A stretch of DNA of 63,953 nt, counting the filler, from Craspedostauros australis (lineage: Eukaryota), in NCBI GenBank assembly GCA_030167865.1. It is 9 parts of 9 records of this genome, joined end to end, with 100 filler letters (N's around TTAATTAATTAA, not from the genome) between each part and the next. Parts side by side here need not be neighbours in the genome. Positions count along the whole stretch, not along the records: positions 46,860 to 57,829 come from JALAGF010005704.1; 8 more parts are not named here. One strand, given 5' to 3'. This document shows positions 46,860-61,410 of the stretch, one piece after another (position 1 is the stretch's first letter; each line of letters begins with the position of its first letter). The translations under genes and the position numbers were made by a program. The notes under the pieces were generated by a model. It ran no database searches and was not told the DNA's origin. It saw nothing but the letters and a program-made list of their open reading frames with translations.

Positions 46860-49670
46860 GGTCCAAGAGTACGGCATCGACTTGCGGGAGAGGACGCCAA
46901 CTACCATTCGAGCGTGGGAGAAGGAGGAATGGCTGATGCCGGCGCTGCGCGGAGCAGGGTACACAAGAGCGCAACTGGAGCGTCTGAATCGATGCAGGGT
47001 AAAAATGCAGGTGATGACGACTGGGGACGTGGCGTGCGCGGAAGTAGAGCTCCCTCCAGAGACGGCACGCGGCCGATGGCGAGGACGAGCTAGCATAGCT
47101 TGGCCGCGGCAAGGACCAATACCGGACCAAGACTGGAGGTTGTGGGGGCGAGCGATACGCAGAGTTCGAAGACAGCTCTCGACAGACGGCCGAATGGTGG
47201 CGCCACCGGAAGCTCTATGGGAGGTGCGCACAAGCGCAGTGTGGACCAGGGAGAGCGGGGGTCGTTGGCAGAAGTGGGCGGCACGAGCTGGCGACGACCC
47301 AGGATTACAGGGATTCTGGCGCCAAGGGCAACCCACAGAACTGGCAGCAACGCAGGGACGCCAAGTATGGCTCCGACAACGGGATGAACAGGTATACGTG
47401 GTGGGAGTGGGCAGATGGTGGAGACAACCGAGCGGGGCCGTGAGGTCGGAGTTCGGGGAAGCCGCAGAGAAGTGGGTCCAGGCAGCACGAGAAGGTAGAG
47501 CTGTTATCAGCACCGATGGGTCGTTTAAGGACGGCAGGAGCACGGCGGCTTTCTCGTTGAACGTGCGAGGGCAACGTGATGGATGTTTACAGATGGCGGG
47601 GCCGGTGCAAGGAAGACAAGCAATACAAAGCGCGTACCGAGCAGAGCTAGGTGGCATATACCAAGCCCTGGNNNNNNNNNNNNNNNNNNNNNNNNNNNNN
47701 NNNNNNNNNNNNNNNNNNNNNGGGACGCCAAGTATGGCTCCGACAACGGGATGAACAGGTATACGTGGTGGGAGTGGGCAGATGGTGGAGACAACCGAGC
47801 GGGGCCGTGAGGTCGGAGTTCGGGGAAGCCGCAGAGAAGTGGGTCCAGGCAGCACGAGAAGGTAGAGCTGTTATCAGCACCGATGGGTCGTTTAAGGACG
47901 GCAGGAGCACGGCGGCTTTCTCGTTGAACGTGCGAGGGCAACGTGATGGATGTTTACAGATGGCGGGGCCGGTGCAAGGAAGACAAGCAATACAAAGCGC
48001 GTACCGAGCAGAGCTAGGTGGCATATACCAAGCCCTGGTGGTGGCTGACAGAATGCTTCGGGAATCCGGCACAGAGTGTGGTGCTTCTGCGGCGACAGTT
48101 GTGGTCGCCTGCGACAACCGCATGGCCGGCATCCATGCCGTGGAATACGATCGCGATGTACACATAGGAGTCCAGCACTTCGACCTCTTGAGGGCGATAC
48201 GACAGGTGACAAGGACGATACCAGCAAAACTCGAGTATCGACATGTGTATGGTCACCAGCTGGAGCGCGATCGTGGCGTCGCGAGAGACGAGTTTGCCTA
48301 CTGGAATGACGACGTTGATCGCCTGGCTGGAATGGAGCAGAAAAGCCACAAGAGCAGCACAGACGGCGAGTGGAGAGATGATGAGTGGTCGGTGTGGCTT
48401 CGGTCATGTAAAGTGTGTCGAGGTGTGAAGACTGAACTTCGGCGCCATGTCCAGAGTGCGAAGACGTGGGCGTGGCAGCGCAAAACCAAGAAGATGTCGG
48501 CGGAGGTGATCGAGCGCATCGACGTGGAGTCGGTTCAGGCAGCTATGGGGCGCATAGGCAGTGCGCGAAAACGATGGGTGGTGAAGCATGCCGCAGGGTT
48601 CGGGCCAGTGGGGCGTAATATGGCGAAGTGGGGGTTCTGGGCGAGCAGCGAGTGCCCGATTTGTCGCGACGAAGAAGAGACGATAGAGCATATATTGCAG
48701 TGCCGGCACCCCGCAGCAATGGCAGTGAGGGAAGCTGCGCTTTCCGAATGGAAGGACAACATGCTGCAGTCCGGAGGAGATGTGGGCATGGTGAGTGAAA
48801 TGGTGCGCCAAATCAGGAGCTGGTGCAATAAGGAGGAGCCGGAGCCAAGAGCACAGCGAGTGGTCCAAGAGGCCGTTAACGATCAGCAGGCGATCGGGTG
48901 GGGGATGATGACGAGAGGGAGGTGGTCCAAGAGGTGGCGACAGGTTCAGTCAGCTCGAATGGAGATCGAGGCAAGGCCCATGAAACCGGCAAACTGGATG
49001 GGAGCGGCAGTCGCAGGACTGTGGGACGTGCGATGGAAAGCCTGGGAGGCGCGAAACAGGGTGCTACATGACCGGGAAGGGCGCAAGCGCGAAGCAGCTG
49101 AGACGGTAGCAGTGTGCAGGATGGTGAATCAGCAGTGGGAGATGAGGGATGCAGACATTATGGCGGCGGATCGTGGGCTGCTAGCGAATGTTACACGGAA
49201 CGAACTCGCAAGGTGGCCCGTGGACGACCAGCGCCGATGGGTGAGGCATGTGCAGGCAGCGCGGAGCGCGGCCAGAGCAGCCAGCGAGCGGAGGAGCGTA
49301 GTGGAAAGCGAGGCACGCGGAGAGAGCCAATGACTTGCGAACGACGCGAGACGGCAACGACGAGGGCGGAGCAGGAGCAAGCGACGGTTTGCTGCGGCTT
49401 CAGGTGACGGAAGGGCAAGAAAGCGACGACGTGGAGGACGGATCGGTATATGAGGCAAGTGAAGAGCATGGCGGGCGCAAGCCGGATGCCCAGTGCGGTA
49501 TGTTAGATGGCCCATGGAGCTGGCAAACCATGGTAGACTAGGTAGTGAGAGACCCAGTGCAGTCGTTCCAGCGCAATCGGCCTTTGGCTCGTTGTATGCG
49601 GTCGACTCTAAAGCCTTCGAGGCAACCCTGTGCGCAGGGGATATTCAGTGAGTTATTATTATTATTATTA
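46860..49670 (+). mobile_element. Non-LTR retrotransposon (LINE) 3' part: ORF with RNase H and zf-RVT-like zinc knuckle (stop at 49333), 3' UTR, (TTA)6 tail
   Basis: RNase H motifs STDGSFK, SAYRAELGG, VACDN, RHVYGHQ, WNDDVDRLA; CPICRDEEETIEHILQC; LWDVRWKAWEARNRVLH; TTA x6 at 49653-49670. 47355-47671 is duplicated at 47722-48038. Confidence 0.9.
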
Positions 49671-52600
49671 CATTGAGTTCAGTGAATCAAGTGGGTTTTG
49701 AGTCGGTAATGATTCATGAATGAGCGTGGGAGAAGGAGGTAAAATATGTACTTTCCGTATTTGTAGGCGTAGAGTTTCGCTCCATAATTGGCGCGCCAAA
49801 AACAATGTCATAGTGCGACATTGGAGACACTAAGTGGAAAGTAGTCTGTTCTTCAGATGAACTTCAACTATTCTAAAACATCTAAAAACAAAAGAATTGC
49901 CAGACATACCCCACAAATAGCTGATGTTGTCTTTCGTTTGCTCGCTTGGATTCGCGCAGCACGATCATTCACGCGGAAGCCGATGCAATTCGAGTATCAA
50001 CCGCTCTTGTATGTGGGAGCTATTGGAGTGTTGTAACTTCCCATCCTGAACAGCGTTATTCTTTCGGTCGACGTTATCAGCTCGATGTTGCGGGTTGGGC
50101 GTTCGACACCAAGTCAGGCCCATCGCTTGCCGTCGAGGCATCTTGAATCTGCGACGATGGTCGCAATCGGCGTGACGGTGCAGCGGTACTGACGTCCCAT
50201 CCATCCAGCAATCCATCCAGCAATCCATTGTCGAAATGGGGAGCGACGTACTCGTAGATGTCGCGCACTGCCCCGGAATGAGACGGCCCGCAGCATCGCA
50301 TGTCCGACGCGACTGTTTGAGTCCTGTAACGCGTGTGATAGACCTCATCTTGCGCGCGTCTTTCAACGTTGGTGGAGGTTGGCATTTCAGAAGATCCATA
50401 CTTCGGCAGTGCGTCGGCAATGGTGGATGGGAAGTTGGGGATTGCTGGACGCTCTGATCGCCGCTCTGATCGCAAGCCGAATCATTTCCGAATGCACACG
50501 CTATACTCGTCAATATGAACAATTTCGAGACCGGCGTCTCGAAATCGGTCTTGCCTGCGTTACCTGATTCGGAAGGCCTCATGCGACGACGGGTGTTGAG
50601 GCTGCCGCCTTGCACGATCACCGTGGAGAGATATTGGCCAGCGTACGTATCGTTCTTGCTCAGCAACGTCTCAACCAAGAACGCAAGAGCTGCAAACAGT
50701 CTGCCCATGGCGACCTCTTCCGCTTCCGCGCTGTGCGACTTCGAGAGGTGGCGGTGAATGTATTGAAGGCACCCTGACTTCGGATGTAGCTTGCTAAGGC
50801 GATACGACCGACATGGCCCCCTGTGCTATGTCCTGGAGACGTATCCCTTTGCAGATGAGAGATGGAACGTTTCGTTGGGGGCATGGACGAATAGCGACGG
50901 TGGGCTTCAAGCGGAGGAATCGAAACAAGTGCGATTCCGTGAATTGCGGCAGCCACGCTTGCCTGGATCGCTGGTTGCTTGGCGCCAACTTTTTGTGAGG
51001 AAGTGAACCGCACAGCAGGAGGAGCCGCCGGCTCGTATTATTGGGCAGAGGTGGCGGCGGCGGTGATAACAAATGTGGAGTTCGCCTTGGATCATATCGA
51101 GACGTCGAGGAACGGGGGGAGAGGTGAAGACCGATCAGCAACAACAGCGTCGCTGTGGACTACGGGTTCGTTGGAGGGTAAAGTGGCCCGCAGCCACCCC
51201 GCTAAATAGTGGATCATCTACCGTGAGAATAGTGGGCGTGACGGTCTGATCGGCAGCATGCGCGCCCGAGCCGTCGCCGTTGGCGATGTGAGACGATGCG
51301 ATGTTCGTGGGCGCACCACCTCGGTAGTTTTGGCGCGCTTGCTGTCTCAGCTGGCTGCTACTTCGACCAGAGTCGTGTCGTGCGATGCACTTGATTGGTG
51401 CTTCAAGTGGGCAGAATGTTGCTGTCGTGAGAGGAGGGTGGTGAAGGAAACTGCTGAACAATATCGGTGCGTTCCTTCGGCGGCGGAAGTTTGGTACGTA
51501 CTTGTGCATCCGAAAGCAGCTTCGTTCCTTCTGCTCTTGCTGAGGCTGACACTCCTGGCAAGTCTATGTTCGGTACTGTGGTGACCAGCCATGGCTTTGT
51601 CTGTTTGCTTCGCGGGAGGTTCCTCAGCAGGATTCTATTTGCCAAGTTGGCGTCGGCCTGCTGCGCGAACTCTGGCATCCATTCTTTGGAAGGGACAGCT
51701 CGAGAGGACAACGCGGAGACCATGGAGTTGGCGCTGCCGCTGCCGCTGCTGCAGACTGAGTGAGTGGTGGCAAGAGTGTCACGACTGTTTCTGTTGCATC
51801 CACGGCGCGAGGATTGTCGAGCTCTCAGCTGGTCTTTGCTGGCGCCAGCAGCTCATCGCCTTGCCATTGAAGCAATGCCAGCAGCCGGTCATTTAGATGG
51901 AACAGGATTCATTCTGCTTCGGATGTGGGTTGCGGTGGCATCTTTGTCGCGCACCCTCCCTCTGCGACACTTGGATCTTGTGTTGACGAAGCAACAAGTA
52001 GCTTCTGCGGTTGCGCAAGTGTATTTCTTCGCGATTGTGACTGATGCCCACGTTGCTGGTATCTTTTTGGTGCTCGATCGGCTTCACATTTCGACGCCTT
52101 GCCACGAAGATTCGTTTTGTGTGTAATCAAGGGTGTCGAATGAATCAACCATTGTGCATCTCAAGTGATTTCGACCAAGCGACGGACCGACAAAAGCATC
52201 TAATCTTCGAACAACAATGAAATAACCACCGAACACTCTGCTCCGCTCTACTCGTGATGGGCAAGTACGAGCTATTCATACCAGGGTGAAGCCCTCAAAC
52301 CTTGCACCAGTGAAGTTGAGACGGACCAGGATGTCAACTGCGACCGAACTGCGACCCAACTGCGACCGAACTGGGAACGAAGAAGAACCCCCTCCGGATG
52401 CTGTTGGACTCTACATGTGTCCGTATGACTGTCATGATCAGAGCCCCAAAACGGTTACTCTATCGTGAACACTCACGACAGACAAGGAGTGTCACAGGAA
52501 GCACACTGCGATTTTGAAGCAAAGAGTAAAGTGGAGGAGAGTAGTTTACTTGATCGCAAAATTAATAGAATACGAGATATGCCAGTGTCCCAACAACTCG

Positions 52601-53822
52601 CGCAGAGTAGTTCCTCGTGATTGCGACGTGCTTCTCTCCCCCTATCCACCTCGCGACAGCGCGAGACTGCATTGCACAATCAGTGGCTTCGTAGGATAGC
52701 TCGTACCTCGTTGTTCGTAGAGTCCCATCGTGGGTACAAAGAGCAGATTGCGCTGTTGTGCAATTGAGACGCGATTGGTCTGCGGACAACCCTGGAGTGA
52801 TTCGCATAGCCATGCCATTCTAAAGTCAATAGACTCGGTCCGAGACGACCATTCAGGCGCTTGGATTGTGCGATGACACCATTGTGTTGCCGCTTGTTGG
52901 TGCTTCGTTGGGACCAGCTTATTCGAATTTGTTCACAATGACCGTACCACGACGTTGACAGCGATGTCGCCAGTATTTCCAGCGCCAGACATAATTGCCG
53001 AGCGCGTCGCGACTGCTTCTCCCACAAGGAGGCAAAAGCAGTGACCTGGACCAGTAGAACACAAAGAGTCGTGGATCACCCATCGACGACAGCTGTGACG
53101 ACGGGTCAAATGCACCAGCAACAAAAGTCAGCCAAAGAACAATAGAGTAGAGTAAATGCCACACTATACTCAACTCTGCTCTACTCTACTCTACTCAACT
53201 CTACTCGTAATTGTATTCGTATTCGTATCCATACCTACGTTGCGCTATTTATTGGTCTCTTCGTTGACACCGTTGACGGCGAACGCCGCAGCAACCTCAG
53301 CCCACATCGTTTACTCAGTCATTGGCGCCAGCGTGAAGGTGACAACAGAGCGAGGTGGGGCGAGGAATCGTTTGCGCTCAAACAGCAAGCACAGTGGCAA
53401 CCAAATCCAAACCGTCGCGCCTTGACCTGCTCACAGTATTCGCCAGCACACATTGCACTCATCACGTCCATTACGCTCACATTGACAACACCATCGACAC
53501 CTACAACACGAACATCATCATCCGTAACATCTCTGTGAGCACGATCAGTAAATCACTACGATTGTCAGTATCGGTGAACCAGAGAAAGCTACAAGCCAGA
53601 ATACAATCAGCATTCAAGGCCACCCTCGTGGGAACGCAACGGCTGCCGCAAATCAGAAACAGTTGCCACGGCATCGCAAGTCTCCATCCGACCGATTTCC
53701 AGACCAAGAGAGCAAACAATCCAGAAGATCCGATGCAGCAGTCAGCTACACTGATTGAGCCAAATCAGCCGTCTCCAGCTGTTGCGTTTCATTGTGTCCA
53801 ACAGATCCCAGCATTGACCATC

Positions 53823-54581
53823 ATGAGCGATGCATCACCCAAAGCTTCCTCCACATGCGAGAAGGGAGAAGCCACCGATAATCAAACGCCGCAAGCCACT
53901 ACACACACAGTAAGTCAGACATCCCCTTCATCGGCATCGCCGCTTAGGCAGGCGGGAAAGCAGGGAGTCGATGTTGCTTCGATGAAGACATTGGGGAACA
54001 CTGCACCAAGACTGATGGAGCGGATGAAACCTCTAGCAACGAGCTTCACGCCGGGCCCGTTCGACGTGATTTGCGGGATCGGGAAGGAAGCTAGGAACCA
54101 TATCGGCAACCTGAACTTCCGCAAACGGATTAAGAAATCCGTCGAGGACTACTCCAATGCCACCAATCGATCCCACAAGAGCAAGATTGTCATGGCCATC
54201 GTGAACGAGATTCGCAAGGGCAGTCCATTCGGTGGTTTCATCAAACATCAGGGTGGTAGATGGCACGAGGTCGGTGATTCGATCGCCCGTGAGAAGGTCG
54301 GTCAGTATCTCCGCGATTCGTTGAGCAATCGATACCGATCGTCATCGAAATCCAAGCGACAGAAACGATTGGAGTCTCTCGGGAAGATGGAAGAGAATCT
54401 CGTGGAGATACTGTCCCGCAATCATGACATCAAGGAAAGCATGGAGGATCTGAGCAGCAAGGCCAAGACTGGCTCTGAGAAAGACTTCACAAATTCGAAC
54501 ACCAAGATCTTAGAAGCCATCAAGAAGGATGAGCCCCTCCAATCGGAAGGTCACGATGTCATCAAAAAGGCTGGGCTGTAA
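53823..54581 (+). CDS. DUF6824 domain protein, about 252 aa (start may be upstream, e.g. 53733)
   Basis: FTPGPFDVICGIGKEARNHIGNLNFR..YSNA..KSKIVMAIVNEIR..GGFIK..WHEVGDSIAREKVGQYLRD. Confidence 0.88.
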   Translation: MSDASPKASSTCEKGEATDNQTPQATTHTVSQTSPSSASPLRQAGKQGVDVASMKTLGNTAPRLMERMKPLATSFTPGPFDVICGIGKEARNHIGNLNFRKRIKKSVEDYSNATNRSHKSKIVMAIVNEIRKGSPFGGFIKHQGGRWHEVGDSIAREKVGQYLRDSLSNRYRSSSKSKRQKRLESLGKMEENLVEILSRNHDIKESMEDLSSKAKTGSEKDFTNSNTKILEAIKKDEPLQSEGHDVIKKAGL

Positions 54582-55783
54582 CTGGATATAGTCTCAACCA
54601 ATATACTTGAAGATAGTTGTATGGGCGAATGACATGAACTGATGAGTTAATGAATGCTACAGTAGTGAAGAAATTACCAATGTAGATGTACGTGGACAGG
54701 TGAGCGCCGTGCGATTGGTGTTTGCATTGATCCTGATGGCAATGTTGATGTTACTGTCCACGGTGATGCTGAGATCATCGATGCTGGTTGTCATACTCGT
54801 GCTTGCGTGGAGGCCGAGCTCCAGATTGGTGCGAACCAGTATCATATACCAGTCCCAGCAAATGACACCAGCACGGAATGGAGGGCACGAACAGGTATTG
54901 CAATTGGGAACTAGCCGGAAGAACATCGAAGACCACAGATGAATTTGGATCGAGCGAAACAAGACATGGTCGACGCAAAGGCCGAACATCTGATTCTCCA
55001 GACCACGATCACAAGTGTAGAAGCAGGCTCACGAAGAACACAACGAAGGAACACTGTTGGATTCCGATGGTTCGTTGGCATTTCTTCGTTCCGATTGCTT
55101 ATGACATACGACACGGCCATGCCGATTGATGGAAGGTGATTGCCGTTTGGGTATAGTTAGACGTTATCGGCACGAGTCTTGCGACACTCCATCGGAGAAA
55201 TGGATGGGAACAACCCGTGCCATTGGTCCCCCACGCGCAAACAGAAGAGAGGCAATGTGAAGAACACACACACAAACGAAACACAAACGACTCACTGACA
55301 CACACACAAACGAATCACAAAAGCAATCGGATCAAAAGTGGAGAAATCAAGTTCCGAACCAAAACACACACGGCAGCCATCGCCTGTCATTGTGGGATGC
55401 ACCCACAATGAAGTTTTCTGTGCACCATCCACAACCATCAGGAACTTTCGCAACGGTAGGCGAAGGATCAATAACAACGACACAACAAGAGCAACAACAG
55501 TAACATCAGCATCGCGATACCCAAAGTATAGTCTTGAGGCAAGCATTCGACACGTGCACAAGTGCAAGCGCTTCCCCTCTTCATTGATCGGAATGCCAGT
55601 GACCAGAATGCCCTTGCTGACTTGAGGTGGTGCAGAGAGTTGGTCGCAGGCAGAGGACAGAGGACAGAGGACAGAGGGTTGGGGTTGACTTTGGTGCTGG
55701 AAACCAGAGCGCACACGCACGAGTAGACGCAAACAGACACCACCACCAACAACAGCCACACCATTCATCCAATAGTGGGCACC

Positions 55784-57821
55784 ATGGTCGGCATTACTCC
55801 CTCAGGCGGATCTCTGGACAACCAGTACCATCACAGAGTGCTCCAGGACCTCATCCGGGCGCTGCAGGATGATGAGCTCACCGACCTCACCCTGCAAGGA
55901 TCCGACGATTCCTTGGTCCTGGCCAACCGATTCCTGCTGGGAGCACGGTCGCCGGTGTTCAAGCGAATGCTCTACGGATCCTTCCAGGAATCGAAGCAAA
56001 CCATCATCTCCTTGCCGTACGAGCACGCAGTGCTGGAGGCCGTCGTGGAATGGTGCGGCTCGCACGAGATCTCCACCTTCCGAGTGGGCTTGGGACGCAA
56101 CGCCGCTTCGGCCAGACGTCTTGTGCAGCTGGTGCAGGCGGCGGACTTCTTGGAATTGACAGAGCTCGCTCGGCTGGTGACGCGGCTGACGCATGACCTC
56201 GCATCGAGGTACCCGCCGTTGGCCTGCGTCGTGTACGATCAAGTGGAGGATGTGGATCACTCGGCCGTCGGACAAGAGGCGATGCTCCTGTTGTACTGCC
56301 GTCCCTACGCCGCGCTGCCACCGTGCGGGGAGACGGATGGAGGTGTTGCGCAGCTGTCGGCCGAACGTCTCCACGGCCTCTTCTCCTCGAAGCACGTCCA
56401 GGCTGGCGAGTGGTTCCTGTTCCAGATGCTGCAGCAGTGGGTCGAGGCACAGCCCGACCCATCGCATGAGGATGTCGTCGAGGTCGCGAGGGCCTGTGCT
56501 GCTGAGATCACTCTGGAATGGATCGAACCGCAGGACCTGCTGGGTGCGGTCCTCAAGAGCCAATGGATCGCTCCCGACCTCATCACGGCCGCCATCACCC
56601 AGCAGGCGCTCAAGGCGTCGCAAGACAGGGTCTGGACGCTTTCATGTCGAGGACCGACCGTGGAACGCATCCTCGTGGAAGGGGCGGGACATGCCAATGC
56701 CAACGGCATCTACTACAGAATACCCGGGCTGGCGAACGGGCAGCTGTACTCCAAACGAGAGGTCGCCTGCGGTCAGCAATTCGTCTACACGCTCAGTTGC
56801 AAGCAGCTCAATCGCAAGAAGGTGGAATGCCGAATCTTCTCCAGCAAGCTCCTGACCCAAGACGGTGTGAGGAAGATCATGGACCTAGATGATGAAGACG
56901 ATGAGAACCCCCGGCAGTACCCCTTCCGTCCGCTGCTGCAGGTCATCCGTTGCGAGACGGTCATCACGGACGCCACGCCAACCTACATGTCCACGGGTCC
57001 ATCAGCATCGCTGGAGCGTCGCAAGAAGAGGAAGCTGCAAGTGAGTCGGCGTTGCTGCTCATGTCGCTGTTGCATGCGTGGATTGTGTCATCGTCGTTGT
57101 TGTTGCTGCTGCTGCTGCTACTACTGCCGCCGTCGTGATTGCTTTGAGTTGCACTCTACCTGCGGGCACTCCACTCCATACAACACCCAATGCATGATAC
57201 ATGATACATGATGGACTCCAACTCTCATTCTCACACACTCCGATTACCAAAACGTCAACAAATACACAGATCCTGTTGGTTTCCGACGGCGAACACTTCA
57301 TCACGGCGACCATGGCGCCGAAGCTGAGGAACAGCAACAGATCCAGCGACATCGGTCTCAACAGTCTCATCAAGCTGCTGTCATACGAAAAGTACATCCT
57401 GCAGGGCAAGGTGGCGATCCGAATCCACAAAGTATCGCTCGTCAGCCAGGATCCGGGGCACCAGTTCGGCCATCCCATCGATTACTACGACGATGATCAT
57501 CCCGCCATGCATGGGTCCGAGCACGCGGATGGCACGGACTCACCGGTCATCACAGAGACATCGGTGGAATCGCACATCGGTGCACAGCTCCAGCTGCAGC
57601 AGAGCCTGTCGCAAGATCCGCCCAGCGACTTGAGCGAGTCGGAGGAGAGCCTTTACTTCTCCGAAGAATCCTTGATCAGCCTCTACTCGTGCCAATACGC
57701 TGTCAGCCACGCGCCTGTGGATTCGAAGATCCCGCGGCAAGGCTGGAAGGTTGACAGTGATGGGAATGCGCCGACACCATTCTGCCGTTGGATACCAGCT
57801 GCCAAGGATGCCGAGGCATGA
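55784..57821 (+). CDS. BTB/POZ(-BACK-like) protein with an RPA70N-like OB-fold insertion, 602 aa, 2 exons
   Basis: Exons 55784-57040 and 57270-57821 (GTGAGT..CAG, phase 0). BTB: LTDLTLQG..ANRFLLGARSPVFKRMLYGSFQES..AADFLEL; BACK-like EWFLFQMLQQW..ITLEWIEPQDL. Confidence 0.88.
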
Positions 57822-57873
57822 GCTGCCGANNNNNNNNNNNNNNNNNNNNNNNNNNNNNNNNNNNNNNNNNNNN

Positions 57874-57885
57874 TTAATTAATTAA
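57874..57885. other. Artificial scaffold spacer TTAATTAATTAA
   Basis: Six-frame stop 12-mer flanked by N runs. Confidence 0.97.
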
Positions 57886-59268
57886 NNNNNNNNNNNNNNN
57901 NNNNNNNNNNNNNNNNNNNNNNNNNNNNNGAGAGGGAAGGAAAGAGGAGCAAGAAGAGTGGAGAGAAGCGAAGGGTGGAATGACACCAAACGAGTAAGTA
58001 CCGGTACGGTACCGTACGGTAAGGCAAGGTGGGGCGTTCTTCATATCTTCGGTTACTATGTCAGAGCATCAACCACCAACACATTGCCATTGCGAGTAGG
58101 TACTCGCATGTGGTCTGTCTCCACATCGGCACCAAGGGAGAGAAACAACCTGAGCAAGCCACATGACCTGCATGAGCAAGTATCTTCCTTTGAAACAAAC
58201 AAATCCAGAAGCTGGAGGTCACAAGTTTGAATTCAGTGATGAAGTGACGAAGCGACGGAGTGGCGAGGGAACAATCGAAATTCAATGCCACGTGTCCCAG
58301 AGTCTCCATGTCTGCATGACAGTGCGAGACAGCGTTGACATCTTCAACATCCTCCACAAGGTGGATCGGCTGAACAAATAGTCTCTTGTCCGGGATCTCT
58401 TTTTGTGGTCGCTCTTGAGATGTGTTGGTGTGTTGGTGTGTCGCGAGCGTGCTGTTCACAGACACGACACGGAAGGTTCCTGTTGTTGGAGTTTCTGTTT
58501 CGGAAGTGAAAATGTGAGGAGGTGAGAGCGATGACGTCACAGATAACGCCACGGATGGTGTGACGTGACCGAGGGAGGCTTCTCGTTCTTTCCGCTTCTC
58601 TTCTCACATTTCTTCTTCCGTTTCCATCGTCTGTTTGTGCTTTGCGCTTTGCACTTTGCACCTCCGGTGATCATGTCAGATGGGCTCTGTACCAGTAGTA
58701 GAATGGTATGATTGTGTACTAGGTAGAATATTCTATTCTATTAGTATGTTATTACTCTACTCGCGAGATATATGATCGTACCTCCTTCTCGTACCATCGA
58801 GCGCAATCCATGAAGTCATCTCTTGTCTGTCCTGTGGAGGGGAAGATTTGGTCACCATCATCACCATCACCATCACTTCCGCCTCGTCATTCCGCTGCAA
58901 CAATGAAGATGAAGTACGTATTCTGCTCACTCACACTCAGGCATTCCAAAAGCAGGTTCGGGCATGTCGAATCCACGACAACATCGAAGTGTTCAACACT
59001 GTGCTCTAACCAAAGACATGCTACGCACGTGCGGAGATGTTTGATCGTTCTTCATTCTATGTATTCACTATCACTATCGCTCTCTCCCTCTCTCTCTCGA
59101 GTTTTATATATGTACAATCATGAGCATGCACGGTGTATCTTTCGTTCTTTCGCTCTTCACATTGATGTATGGTCTGCACGCATGCTGCTTGATGCCGGTG
59201 CGCGCAAGCTGGAAAATTGATTGATGTCGATTGCGGACCGGAGTGTCCACNGCTTCGGCATAAAGAGC

Positions 59269-61410
59269 TTATGCGTGCTGCTCATCGACACCGTCACCGC
59301 TCGCGGAGTCGCTCTCCTCCATCATGCTCATTCTCTTCGACTCTTCGTACATGAACACGCTCTGCTCCTTGGCTTGCAGCCACTCTTCGATTGGCTCGTC
59401 CTCTCCGTCCAACAGCAGGAGCTCCCAGTCTTCGAAGAAGCGGGGCAGCACGAAGAGACGTCCTGGGATGCACAGCATCGTCATCATGGGGAACACGATG
59501 GCAACCGCCTTCACGTTCTGGACGGTGAAGACCAGCGAGAAGAACAGGATCTGAAGGATGGTGTACATGTGGATGCGACCCTTCTCCATGTGCTCGGTGT
59601 AGATCGTCTTGGGGTACTTGGATGGTTGCTGGAAGAAGAGGAGGAAGCGGTTCCAGAACTGGATACCGTTGAGACTGGAGAGACCCATGAAGAGGAACAC
59701 TCCGTACAGGACTGGCAGAGGAAGGAGCTTGAGGACGTTGAGCACCAGGATGGACAGACCGACCATCAAGTGGGAGAAGAAGAGAGTCAATCGGGTCTCC
59801 TGCACCTCGAGGAAGTTGCCGTCACGGTCCTTCTCGGCCAATGCGTTGAGATGGATGATACATGGGACGGTGGTGGCGACCAACCATGGGAGGCCGAAGG
59901 CACCGTTGACGAAATTGAAGAATCCATTGAGACACAGATCGTAGTTGTACGCTTCACCGTGCTTCAGGTTGTGACTCTTGTGCTGGATCAAGTGCCATGT
60001 GATGCCGTTGTCGAGGTAGCAGAGAAGGAAGGCGAGGATGGCAGGACCAGCAGCTGCGAAGATCACCCAAGTCTTTCCGTTCAAATCACCGAAGTCGACC
60101 AACCAGGATCGTGTTCCGGCGGCCTCAGCCTGATCTTCGCAGTCATCTGGGAAGAAGGTACGGCACGAAGAATCGCAGCATGCGAAGGTTGGCTCGAATT
60201 CATCTGGGACGCTCAATGATTCTGTCTCGACGTGATCGAAGATGACCTGCTTGACGAGGGTCCACACGACGACCGACAGTGTGACGGAGAAATCATGGAT
60301 GGATGTGCGGGTGCCATCGTTGCAGAAGAATGGAGAATGACGGAATCCACGGAAGAAGAAGATCAGCGAGGTGGTTCCAAGTCCGAGGATCACACTCAGG
60401 AATCCCGAGGAGATGTAGGCGTAGTTTGGATCTTCCTCCTCGAGTTCCGTGTGAGAAGCATGATCTGGGTTCATGTAATGAAGAAGTCCGACGTCGCTGA
60501 ATGGATCGCCGATGGCGTCCATCACGAAGATGCTGACGATGAGGAGAGCGAAGATCTCGTCGGTGAAGCGGGTGGCGAGCTTGACGTATCTGGTGAGATC
60601 GAAGAATCCGGCAATGAGGGTATAGGCGAAGAGCCACACGCTGACCCATGCGTTGAAGGTGAGGAAAGGAACATCGAGGTTCTTGGAGAGGTTGTACACG
60701 ACGGTGGAGAATGCGAGGACCGGACCGGTGGATCCGATGACGCAGATTGGCATTCCGCCGATGAGACTGTAGACGACACCAACCCAGGCGGTTGCCATGA
60801 TGGTCTCGATGGCACCAATCTGGTTGTCGGTTGCCTTTCCGTAGACAGCTCCGAAGGTGAGGGTTGGGGAGATGACGGAGATGAAGACGAGGAAGGTGAC
60901 AGCGATGGTCTTCTGGTTGAAGTTGGTCATTTCCTGTTGAATTCATGGTGAATGGTGGATGGTGGGTAGTTGATTGATGTTGGTTGATTGGTTGATAGTT
61001 GGTGGTCAAAGTGGGGTGGATGAGTGTGAGAAGAAGCGAGCGTTGGCGGTGATGGTGATGGTGGTAGACATGGCAGCGCTGATGATCAAGAGATGCCAAT
61101 GAGCGCATGCCAATGAGCATCATAGATTCATAGTGCGGTGCGGTGCAGTACAGTACAGTACCAATACATTGCAGTATCTGCTCGGTTCTACTCCATTCTA
61201 CGTTGCTGTGTTCGAACGTACCTCTACCCAGTGGGTTCCGACGGTCCTCTTGATGTCATTGATGATGCCGCGTCCCCACATCTGTGGTTCCTCGTGATGG
61301 CCTTGGCTCACTCCGGCCATGAGCTCGGCGTTGGATGGCATCGACTTGAGACTGCGAGACGTCATGTTCGTCACTGTCTTGTTGAGTTCTTTCTCGCCTT
61401 GGTCGGTCAT
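59269..61410 (-). CDS. SLC4: SLC4-family bicarbonate transporter, 617 aa, 2 exons
   Basis: Exons 61410-61222 and 60933-59269 give GRGIINDIKRTVGTHWVE|EMTNFNQKT. Motifs SPTLTFG, IGSTGP, TRFTDEIF, GLPWLVATTV, VQETRLT, VLYGVFLFMG, QFWNR. Confidence 0.95.

Follow-up and report, generated by a model that had tools for sequence, protein, structure and literature searches.

Here we describe a gene on the plus strand of a 63,953-nucleotide stretch of DNA from Craspedostauros australis (GenBank assembly GCA_030167865.1; hereafter, the window), which consists of nine parts of nine records joined end to end with 100 filler letters between them, the gene lying in the part taken from JALAGF010005704.1 (positions 46,860 to 57,829). 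When its two exons are spliced and translated in silico, they encode a protein of 602 amino acids (aa) in which a BTB/POZ domain and a BACK-like region are followed by a small beta module, and nested in a loop of this module is an OB fold of the type found at the N-terminus of RPA70 (RPA70N, the N-terminal OB domain of RPA1/Rfa1, also called DBD-F) (Table 1). The gene is nuclear and intact, its two-exon form is of diatom type, and the combination of BTB with a nested RPA70N-type OB fold is unusual yet conserved.

Table 1. Features of the BTB gene, with positions counted along the whole window (HMM, hidden Markov model)
Feature	Position	Strand	Basis or remark
Exon 1 (P0001, 419 aa)	55784..57040	+	ATG at 55784; collinear with homologues from residue 1
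BTB/POZ domain, residues 28-134	55865..56185	+	Pfam BTB, E 8.4e-9, 36 bits (cut-off 20.5)
phi-x-E motif F67-Q68-E69 (by which BTB adaptors contact cullin-3)	55982..55990	+	Profile alignment to KLHL3/KLHL11
BACK-like helical region	56186..56644	+	Pfam BACK, sub-threshold; KLHL11 profile alignment
Small beta module, N-half, residues 288-358 (ERILVEGAG..ANGIYY..LYSKRE..VYTLS..ECRIFSSK)	56645..56857	+	N-half HMM, i-E 9.5e-42; strands 19-78 of P0045 model
OB fold, part 1 (N-terminal helix, strand 1, variable loop)	56849..57040	+	OB HMM; RPA1-N profile
Basic run RRKKRK, in loop aligned with human R41/R43 region	57017..57034	+	Not conserved in homologues
Intron as modelled, 229 nt, GT..AG, (TGC)n-rich interior	57041..57269	+	Homologues unbroken across it
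Exon 2 (P0002, 183 aa)	57270..57818	+	TGA stop at 57819-57821
OB fold, part 2 (invariant SDG turn to GHPIDY)	57270..57485	+	Rep-A_N, 13.6 bits; RPA1-N profile, 34.2 bits
Acidic linker	57492..57668	+	Charge count; corresponding part of P0045 model has low confidence; probably disordered
Small beta module, C-half (LYSCQY..SKIPRQGWKVDSDGNAPTPFCRWIP)	57669..57809	+	C-half HMM, i-E 1.5e-28

The OB fold was recognized on the spliced protein with a local profile made from the N-termini of 16 RPA1 proteins, 15 of which carry Rep-A_N, REPA_OB_2 and Rep_fac-A_C and one of which is truncated. The protein scored 44.0 bits in one alignment of residues 357-491 to profile positions 3-114; scored singly, exon 1 gave 9.7 bits and exon 2 gave 34.2 bits. 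The highest score among 500 shuffled versions of the C-terminal part was 6.3 bits, so that chance falls far short of explaining the likeness to RPA70N. Further, all 20 homologues tested scored from 17.7 to 69.1 bits against the same profile. The cut-off of the Pfam family Rep-A_N (PF04057; 26.7 bits) was reached by 8 of 22 full-length homologues (28.0-41.4 bits); the match was below cut-off in six (19.2-25.1 bits) and unreported at E <= 0.01 in eight, and PF04057 is precomputed for 9 of the 64 family matches. When the OB fold of one homologue, P0045, was compared by phmmer with PDB sequences, the first 13 rows were human RPA70 (best E 0.0037; query 20-121, chain 18-120), while phmmer of the exon 2 translation returned no match in the same collection. 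The family profile matched RPA70N chains among PDB sequences at E 3.6e-6 and canonical RPA1 N-termini in a large protein library at E 1e-8 to 3e-12. The domain order of an RPA1 orthologue (Rep-A_N, then tRNA_anti-codon, REPA_OB_2 and Rep_fac-A_C) is absent from the window protein, in which only BTB, a weak BACK and the OB fold were found. What the family shares with RPA70N is the fold and an end-to-end homology that takes in the helix at the N-terminus, the QPxLQV strand, the invariant SDG turn and, at the C-terminus, the GNPV-like motif. It differs in that the OB fold sits in a loop of another domain of a BTB protein, not ahead of DNA-binding domains A, B and C, is followed by an acidic linker, and keeps the groove arginines only in part.

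The structural comparison was made with an AlphaFold (AF2) model of P0045 residues 273-551 (predicted local distance difference test score, pLDDT, 83.8; predicted template modelling score, pTM, 0.74). All 21 Foldseek matches listed at E <= 1e-3 were RPA70N or the N-terminal OB fold of Rfa1, the best being 2b29 (E 7.6e-8), with TM-scores on the target of 0.77-0.82. VIA-align likewise placed RPA70N (7xut_A) first, with Z 15.7 and a root-mean-square deviation of 2.6 over 114 aligned residues, followed by Rfa1-N (Z 13.3), RADX (11.6) and generic OB folds (<=10.0), in rows spanning mainly model residues 78-199 and barely covering the flanking module. The ESM Atlas, searched with residues 296-372, contained no match scoring above 0.86, which is under the useful range. 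RADX resembles the family in carrying an RPA-like OB fold outside RPA; unlike the family, it is a multi-OB protein binding single-stranded DNA (ssDNA), without BTB and without the nested topology. As regards both identity and architecture, we conclude with very high confidence that this is a genuine OB fold of the RPA70N type, nested in a BTB-BACK-like protein.

In the window protein, the OB fold is preceded by ILVEGAGHANANGIYYR and followed by LYSC..IPRQGWKVDSDGNAPTP. With separate HMMs built for the N-half, the OB fold and the C-half, 202 proteins were searched; both halves were detected in 46, and in every one of these an OB match lay between them, the gap measuring 117-326 aa. The same order is seen in the P0045 model, in which five strands (residues 19-78) are followed by the OB fold (about 80-196), a linker of pLDDT 58-61, and strands 222-230 and 257-261 with pLDDT of about 94. 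The module also occurs without interruption: in P0136, P0203 and P0204 it follows Rep-A_N as a continuous unit (VEVEGCG..NGxY..YSKK..NWYIGxW..FYSSTY..PPExxWEV..NPAPTCRL), and in P0205 and P0206 it is present as three uninterrupted tandem copies. In these uninterrupted homologues, N-half and C-half HMM matches keep the expected order at a spacing of about 100 aa, as in P0205, where N-half matches lie at 159, 302 and 459 and C-half matches end at 264, 406 and 554. In P0136 and P0204, the final stretch of the continuous module is what the window C-half aligns to, the C-half HMM is clear on P0136 (22.3 bits), and P0136 residues 216-334 match P0205 at E 8.6e-26. Since the module occurs uninterrupted in other proteins, the OB fold is an insertion and its flanks are one domain; together with its linker, it sits in the loop between module strands five and six.

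The environmental proteins P0136 and P0203 (coiled coil, Rep-A_N, uninterrupted module) share with the window family both the small beta module and an RPA70N-type OB fold, and P0205 and P0206 share the module, but in all four the module is uninterrupted and BTB is lacking; moreover, in P0136 the OB fold precedes the module, whereas in the window family it lies inside it. The module measures about 100 aa and has the consensus VxVEGxG..NGxY..YxK..WxIG..FY..PPxxxW..G..PxPTCR; in P0205 and P0206 a coiled coil precedes it, and the relatives found number only about ten. No Pfam family matched the module at E <= 0.1. A two-chain prediction from the P0045 halves (280-354 and 488-540), in which the alignment was not used, gave no verdict (score 0.01), and an AlphaFold model of the uninterrupted module (P0204, with alignment) had a pLDDT of 44.1 and was unusable.

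The coding sequence of the OB fold is divided by the modelled intron, which begins with the donor GTGAGT at 57041 and ends with the acceptor CACAG at 57269. The exons lie in different frames, and without splicing the frame of exon 1 enters a Cys-rich tail and reaches a stop at 57211; a single unspliced open reading frame (ORF) was considered and rejected. The predicted junction 57040/57270 joins ..AAGCTGCAA to ATCCTGTTG.., and when the in-silico spliced protein was aligned with 22 full-length homologues, the pattern K-x-x-x-x-x-L-SDG ran across the junction in 20 of them; P0036 and P0055 lack it, being aberrant from the junction onward. Several homologues, from Nitzschia sp. RCC80, Thalassiothrix antarctica and P0024 (labelled Tiarina), are derived from transcriptomes, and as those of Nitzschia sp. 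RCC80 and T. antarctica are among the 20 that continue across the junction, the mature message in relatives encodes an unbroken domain. Many metagenomic relatives (P0003-P0030, P0085, P0094, P0095, P0100, P0102 and P0113) are called as two ORFs; where they are split, the first stops in the first part of the OB fold and the second begins at about OB profile position 47-60, like exon 2, which suggests a shared intron at or near the start of exon 2. A low-complexity (TGC)n/(TGT)n run occupies about 57085-57139 of the intron. The junction was part of an earlier note on this DNA, which had modelled the same intron, read an RPA70N-like domain from end to end across it, and proposed that the flanks of this domain were the halves of a single small domain that it had been inserted into. 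All three proposals are borne out by the comparisons above, and the peptides quoted there are all present in the exon translations, LLTQDGVRKIM starting at 56849, RRKKRK at 57017-57034 and QFGHPIDY ending at 57485.

Around the gene, antisense ORFs at 55802-56641 and 57059-57481 were rejected as genes, having no Pfam match, and tblastn revealed no second copy of the gene within the window. N runs around the TTAATTAATTAA linker (window 57831-57929) start 9 nt past the stop codon, and because the assembly gap begins there, the 3' untranslated region is not represented. An upstream ORF on the plus strand (53343-54581) encodes DUF6824 (E 1.5e-21) and another on the minus strand beyond the N gap (59269-60942) an SLC4-type HCO3- transporter (E 7e-122), both without evident functional link to the BTB gene.

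The N-terminal part of the protein resembles adaptors of cullin-3 ubiquitin ligases. Positions 29-274 of the family profile align to residues 33-273 of the KLHL11 BTB-BACK structure (E 4.8e-10), and the KLHL3 BTB-BACK was matched at E 6.3e-9, both among PDB sequences; phmmer of the exon 1 translation alone found no match in that collection. In the profile alignment, the family G-s-F-r-E falls on G-D-M-S-E of KLHL3 and G-Q-F-S-E of KLHL11, with F67-Q68-E69 of the window protein corresponding to KLHL3 M83-S84-E85 and KLHL11 F-S-E, and the glutamate is kept in at least 90% of 22 family sequences. The available text of PMC3616122 defines this phi-x-E motif, places it at M83-S84-E85 in KLHL3, and reports that E85A severely disrupts Cul3 binding, with a Kd that could not be measured. 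Because KLHL11 and KLHL3, to which the BTB-BACK part can be aligned, were both solved with Cul3, and phi-x-E is kept, the role of a cullin-3 adaptor is the best inference, and on these alignments we consider it reasonably probable. The likeness to the BTB-BACK-Kelch adaptors KLHL11 and KLHL3 (PDB 4AP2 and 4HXI) and to the MATH-BTB protein SPOP consists in a BTB plus BACK-like unit over about 245 positions and the retained phi-x-E; the difference lies at the receptor end, where the family has a Pfam-less beta module with a nested RPA70N-type OB fold and not Kelch, MATH or PHR.

The family is represented by 64 homologues in the exon 1 search (E <= 1e-3), the nearest being about 55% identical to the window protein over exon 1, and a profile of the C-terminal module retrieved 465 proteins at E <= 1e-3, 53 of them at E <= 1e-30, among 1.84 billion. 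The named members are from pennate diatoms: Nitzschia inconspicua, with two records under the automatic name 'BTB/POZ domain containing protein', Nitzschia sp. RCC80 and Thalassiothrix antarctica. One further member, P0024, comes from a transcriptome labelled as that of the ciliate Tiarina. A quick tree was built from 135 OB rows (domains covering >=85 profile positions; <=2 copies per tandem protein); in it, the family OB folds fell into one set of 36 rows (SH-aLRT 97) comprising 29 family-labelled rows and seven cluster mates or fragments of members. The OB fold of P0136 fell into another set (SH-aLRT 99), together with P0175 (Detonula, TAZ) and P0150 (Rep-A_N+BTB_2+SAM). As the deep branches of the tree are unresolved, we name no donor of the OB fold. 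Outside RPA1, Rep-A_N was seen with a coiled coil and the small module (P0136/P0203), with PDZ, with BTB_2 and SAM, and with CARD and caspase (among P0150, P0159 and P0173), with two TAZ zinc fingers in the diatom Detonula confervacea (P0175), and in tandem arrays of 6-7 copies in the fly Musca autumnalis and the grass Eragrostis curvula (P0097, P0105). Since Rep-A_N occurs with PDZ, with CARD-caspase and in tandem arrays, recruitment of the fold outside RPA is not unique to this family.

A full-text literature search found no description of a BTB protein with an RPA70N domain. A review mentioning both BTB and RPA70N was set aside as unrelated on its title and abstract, and the available main text of PMC3670738 gives no per-species cullin or BTB counts, these being placed in its supplement. 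The gene had been called an undescribed E3 adaptor of the BTB Cullin-3 type in the earlier note. As to 'undescribed', this holds for the papers searched; in public databases, members are already present with automatic BTB and PF04057 matches. The adaptor type is upheld as regards the BTB domain, the BACK-like region and the retained phi-x-E, while binding of CUL3 itself is a step beyond these features.

Several observations weigh against the interpretation of the protein as a BTB-BACK adaptor with an RPA70N-type receptor. The 16 RPA1 proteins behind the local profile came from family-profile matches, and their selection is thereby biased towards similarity. With the two exons searched separately, Pfam gave Rep-A_N on exon 2 at 13.6 bits (E 0.068), at positions 42-85 as expected, and none on exon 1; Pfam BACK reached 15.8 bits on the window protein, below the cut-off of 20.9. 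The structure was modelled on P0045, which is about 41-45% identical to the window exons, and not on the window protein. The N-half HMM is weak in the uninterrupted homologues (P0136, 5.1 bits; P0205, 15.0; P0204, 17.7; single-sequence E-values), and the packing of the C-half on the N-half is suggested by the pLDDT of about 94 and by those homologues, not by contacts in the model. A single read run, the kind of which was guessed, yielded one contig covering only 57287-57825, short of the junction; judged from the DNA, the intron is as modelled. Finally, mutation of the conserved arginines R31, R41, R43 and R91 of human RPA70N weakened or disrupted binding of each partner peptide tested, according to the available text of PMC10479964, and when these groove positions were mapped through the P0045-to-human phmmer alignment on 23 family rows, the R31 position was basic in none and E or D in 12, and R or K stood at the R41 position in 11, at R43 in 12 and at R91 in 5.

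In the window protein, the residues at the R31, R41, R43 and R91 positions of the family alignment are E, R, I and K, although the alignment of the loop is ambiguous, the RPA1-N profile assigning R41 and R43 to an R and a K within the basic run RRKKRK. This run had been taken for an element like a nuclear localization signal; as it is not conserved in homologues, we rejected it as a conserved signal, and given its alignment with the human R41/R43 region, it may instead belong to the wall of the groove. With its groove arginines retained only in part, the OB fold probably differs from RPA70N in specificity, and the residue pattern suggests that the ligand code of the family has probably diverged. 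The proposal of the earlier note that an RPA mimic captures DNA-damage-response proteins is weakened accordingly, the R31 position never being basic and the other arginines being kept only in part: capture of RPA partners is possible but unsupported, and DNA-damage-response proteins are rather unlikely substrates. The net charge of the OB fold is +3 in the window and ranges from -6 to +7 in the family, without a consistent basic surface. The linker behind it carries a net charge of -16 over 63 residues in the window, counted from three residues before 57492, and is acidic (-2 to -16) in 21 of 23 family rows, P0036 and P0055 ending before it. That this linker acts in cis as a pseudo-ligand is speculation.

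Keeping these points in mind, we favour, as somewhat better than an even bet, the explanation that an RPA70N-type OB fold is nested in the receptor end of an adaptor of a CUL3-based ubiquitin ligase (CRL3). The protein would dimerize via its BTB domain, bind cullin-3 via phi-x-E and the BACK region, and offer the OB fold plus beta module as a substrate receptor. Between its L12 and L45 loops the OB fold has a groove in which, in the manner of RPA70N, it would most likely dock a short peptide motif belonging to the substrate, and the acidic linker may fill this groove in cis. A far more specific version of this scheme is doubtful: in diatoms, a beta module particular to the lineage would have received an RPA70N-derived, peptide-docking OB fold and so become a CRL3 substrate receptor, the acidic linker would gate the groove as a cis pseudo-ligand, and its release, e.g. 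by phosphorylation in replication stress, would allow the receptor to capture replication or checkpoint proteins by their acidic amphipathic motifs for ubiquitylation. To this version belongs the suggestion, drawn from the non-nested arrangement in P0136, that the OB fold and the beta module are a functional pair that was combined more than once.

Two other explanations, to each of which we give a similarly low probability, keep the OB fold and assign it another task. The protein could be no ligase adaptor at all, with BTB serving only to dimerize it. The OB fold would then be a decoy in competition with RPA for proteins bearing RPA70N-binding motifs, or a scaffold on which they gather, and no ubiquitylation would follow. 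Many BTB proteins do not bind cullin-3, the OB fold is a true RPA70N homologue, and Rep-A_N is found in non-ligase contexts (TAZ, PDZ, CARD-caspase, tandem arrays), all of which would fit; however, a decoy would not account for the phi-x-E glutamate kept in at least 90% of 22 members or for best solved matches that are the BTB-BACK parts of KLHL11 and KLHL3, crystallized with Cul3, and few of the arginines that RPA70N needs to bind its partners are well kept in the family. Alternatively, the OB fold could be a targeting domain that binds ssDNA, RNA or RPA-coated DNA and brings the CUL3 ligase there, leaving the beta module or the linker to pick the substrate. Direct binding of ssDNA is reported for the RPA70 N-terminal domain in the available text of PMC3561959, VIA-align detected likeness to nucleic-acid-binding OB folds (RADX, Z 11.6; Teb1; archaeal RPA), and the window OB fold has its charge of +3 and the basic RRKKRK loop. 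Such a surface is not consistent across the family, however, and in both structure and sequence the OB fold is nearest to RPA70N and Rfa1-N, which bind proteins, and not to the DNA-binding domains A, B and C. Chance similarity, or a gene-model artefact or pseudogene without an OB domain, could draw on the weak Pfam evidence from the window's own exons and on the missing RNA support in C. australis, but is extremely improbable in the face of 44.0 bits against a shuffle maximum of 6.3, two open exons whose splice restores a frame collinear with 20 of 22 homologues, a conserved family and a confident OB model for P0045.

BTB-BACK adaptors are defined by their receptor domain, such as Kelch, MATH or PHR, and an RPA70N-type receptor, if our preferred explanation of a CRL3 adaptor is true, would constitute a new class of them. 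Apart from that, the nested topology is a clear domain insertion that an intron conceals from ORF-based annotation, a beta module of about 100 aa without a Pfam model is now defined, and Rep-A_N emerges as a mobile module, combined with TAZ, PDZ, BTB_2+SAM or CARD-caspase and arranged in tandem arrays. In the available text of PMC10479964, RPA70N is described as a major docking site in the replication-stress response, with >20 partner proteins. A ligase-linked copy of RPA70N, if true, would therefore give a handle on how diatoms couple ubiquitylation to the RPA70N interaction code, or on the re-use of its fold for other ligands.

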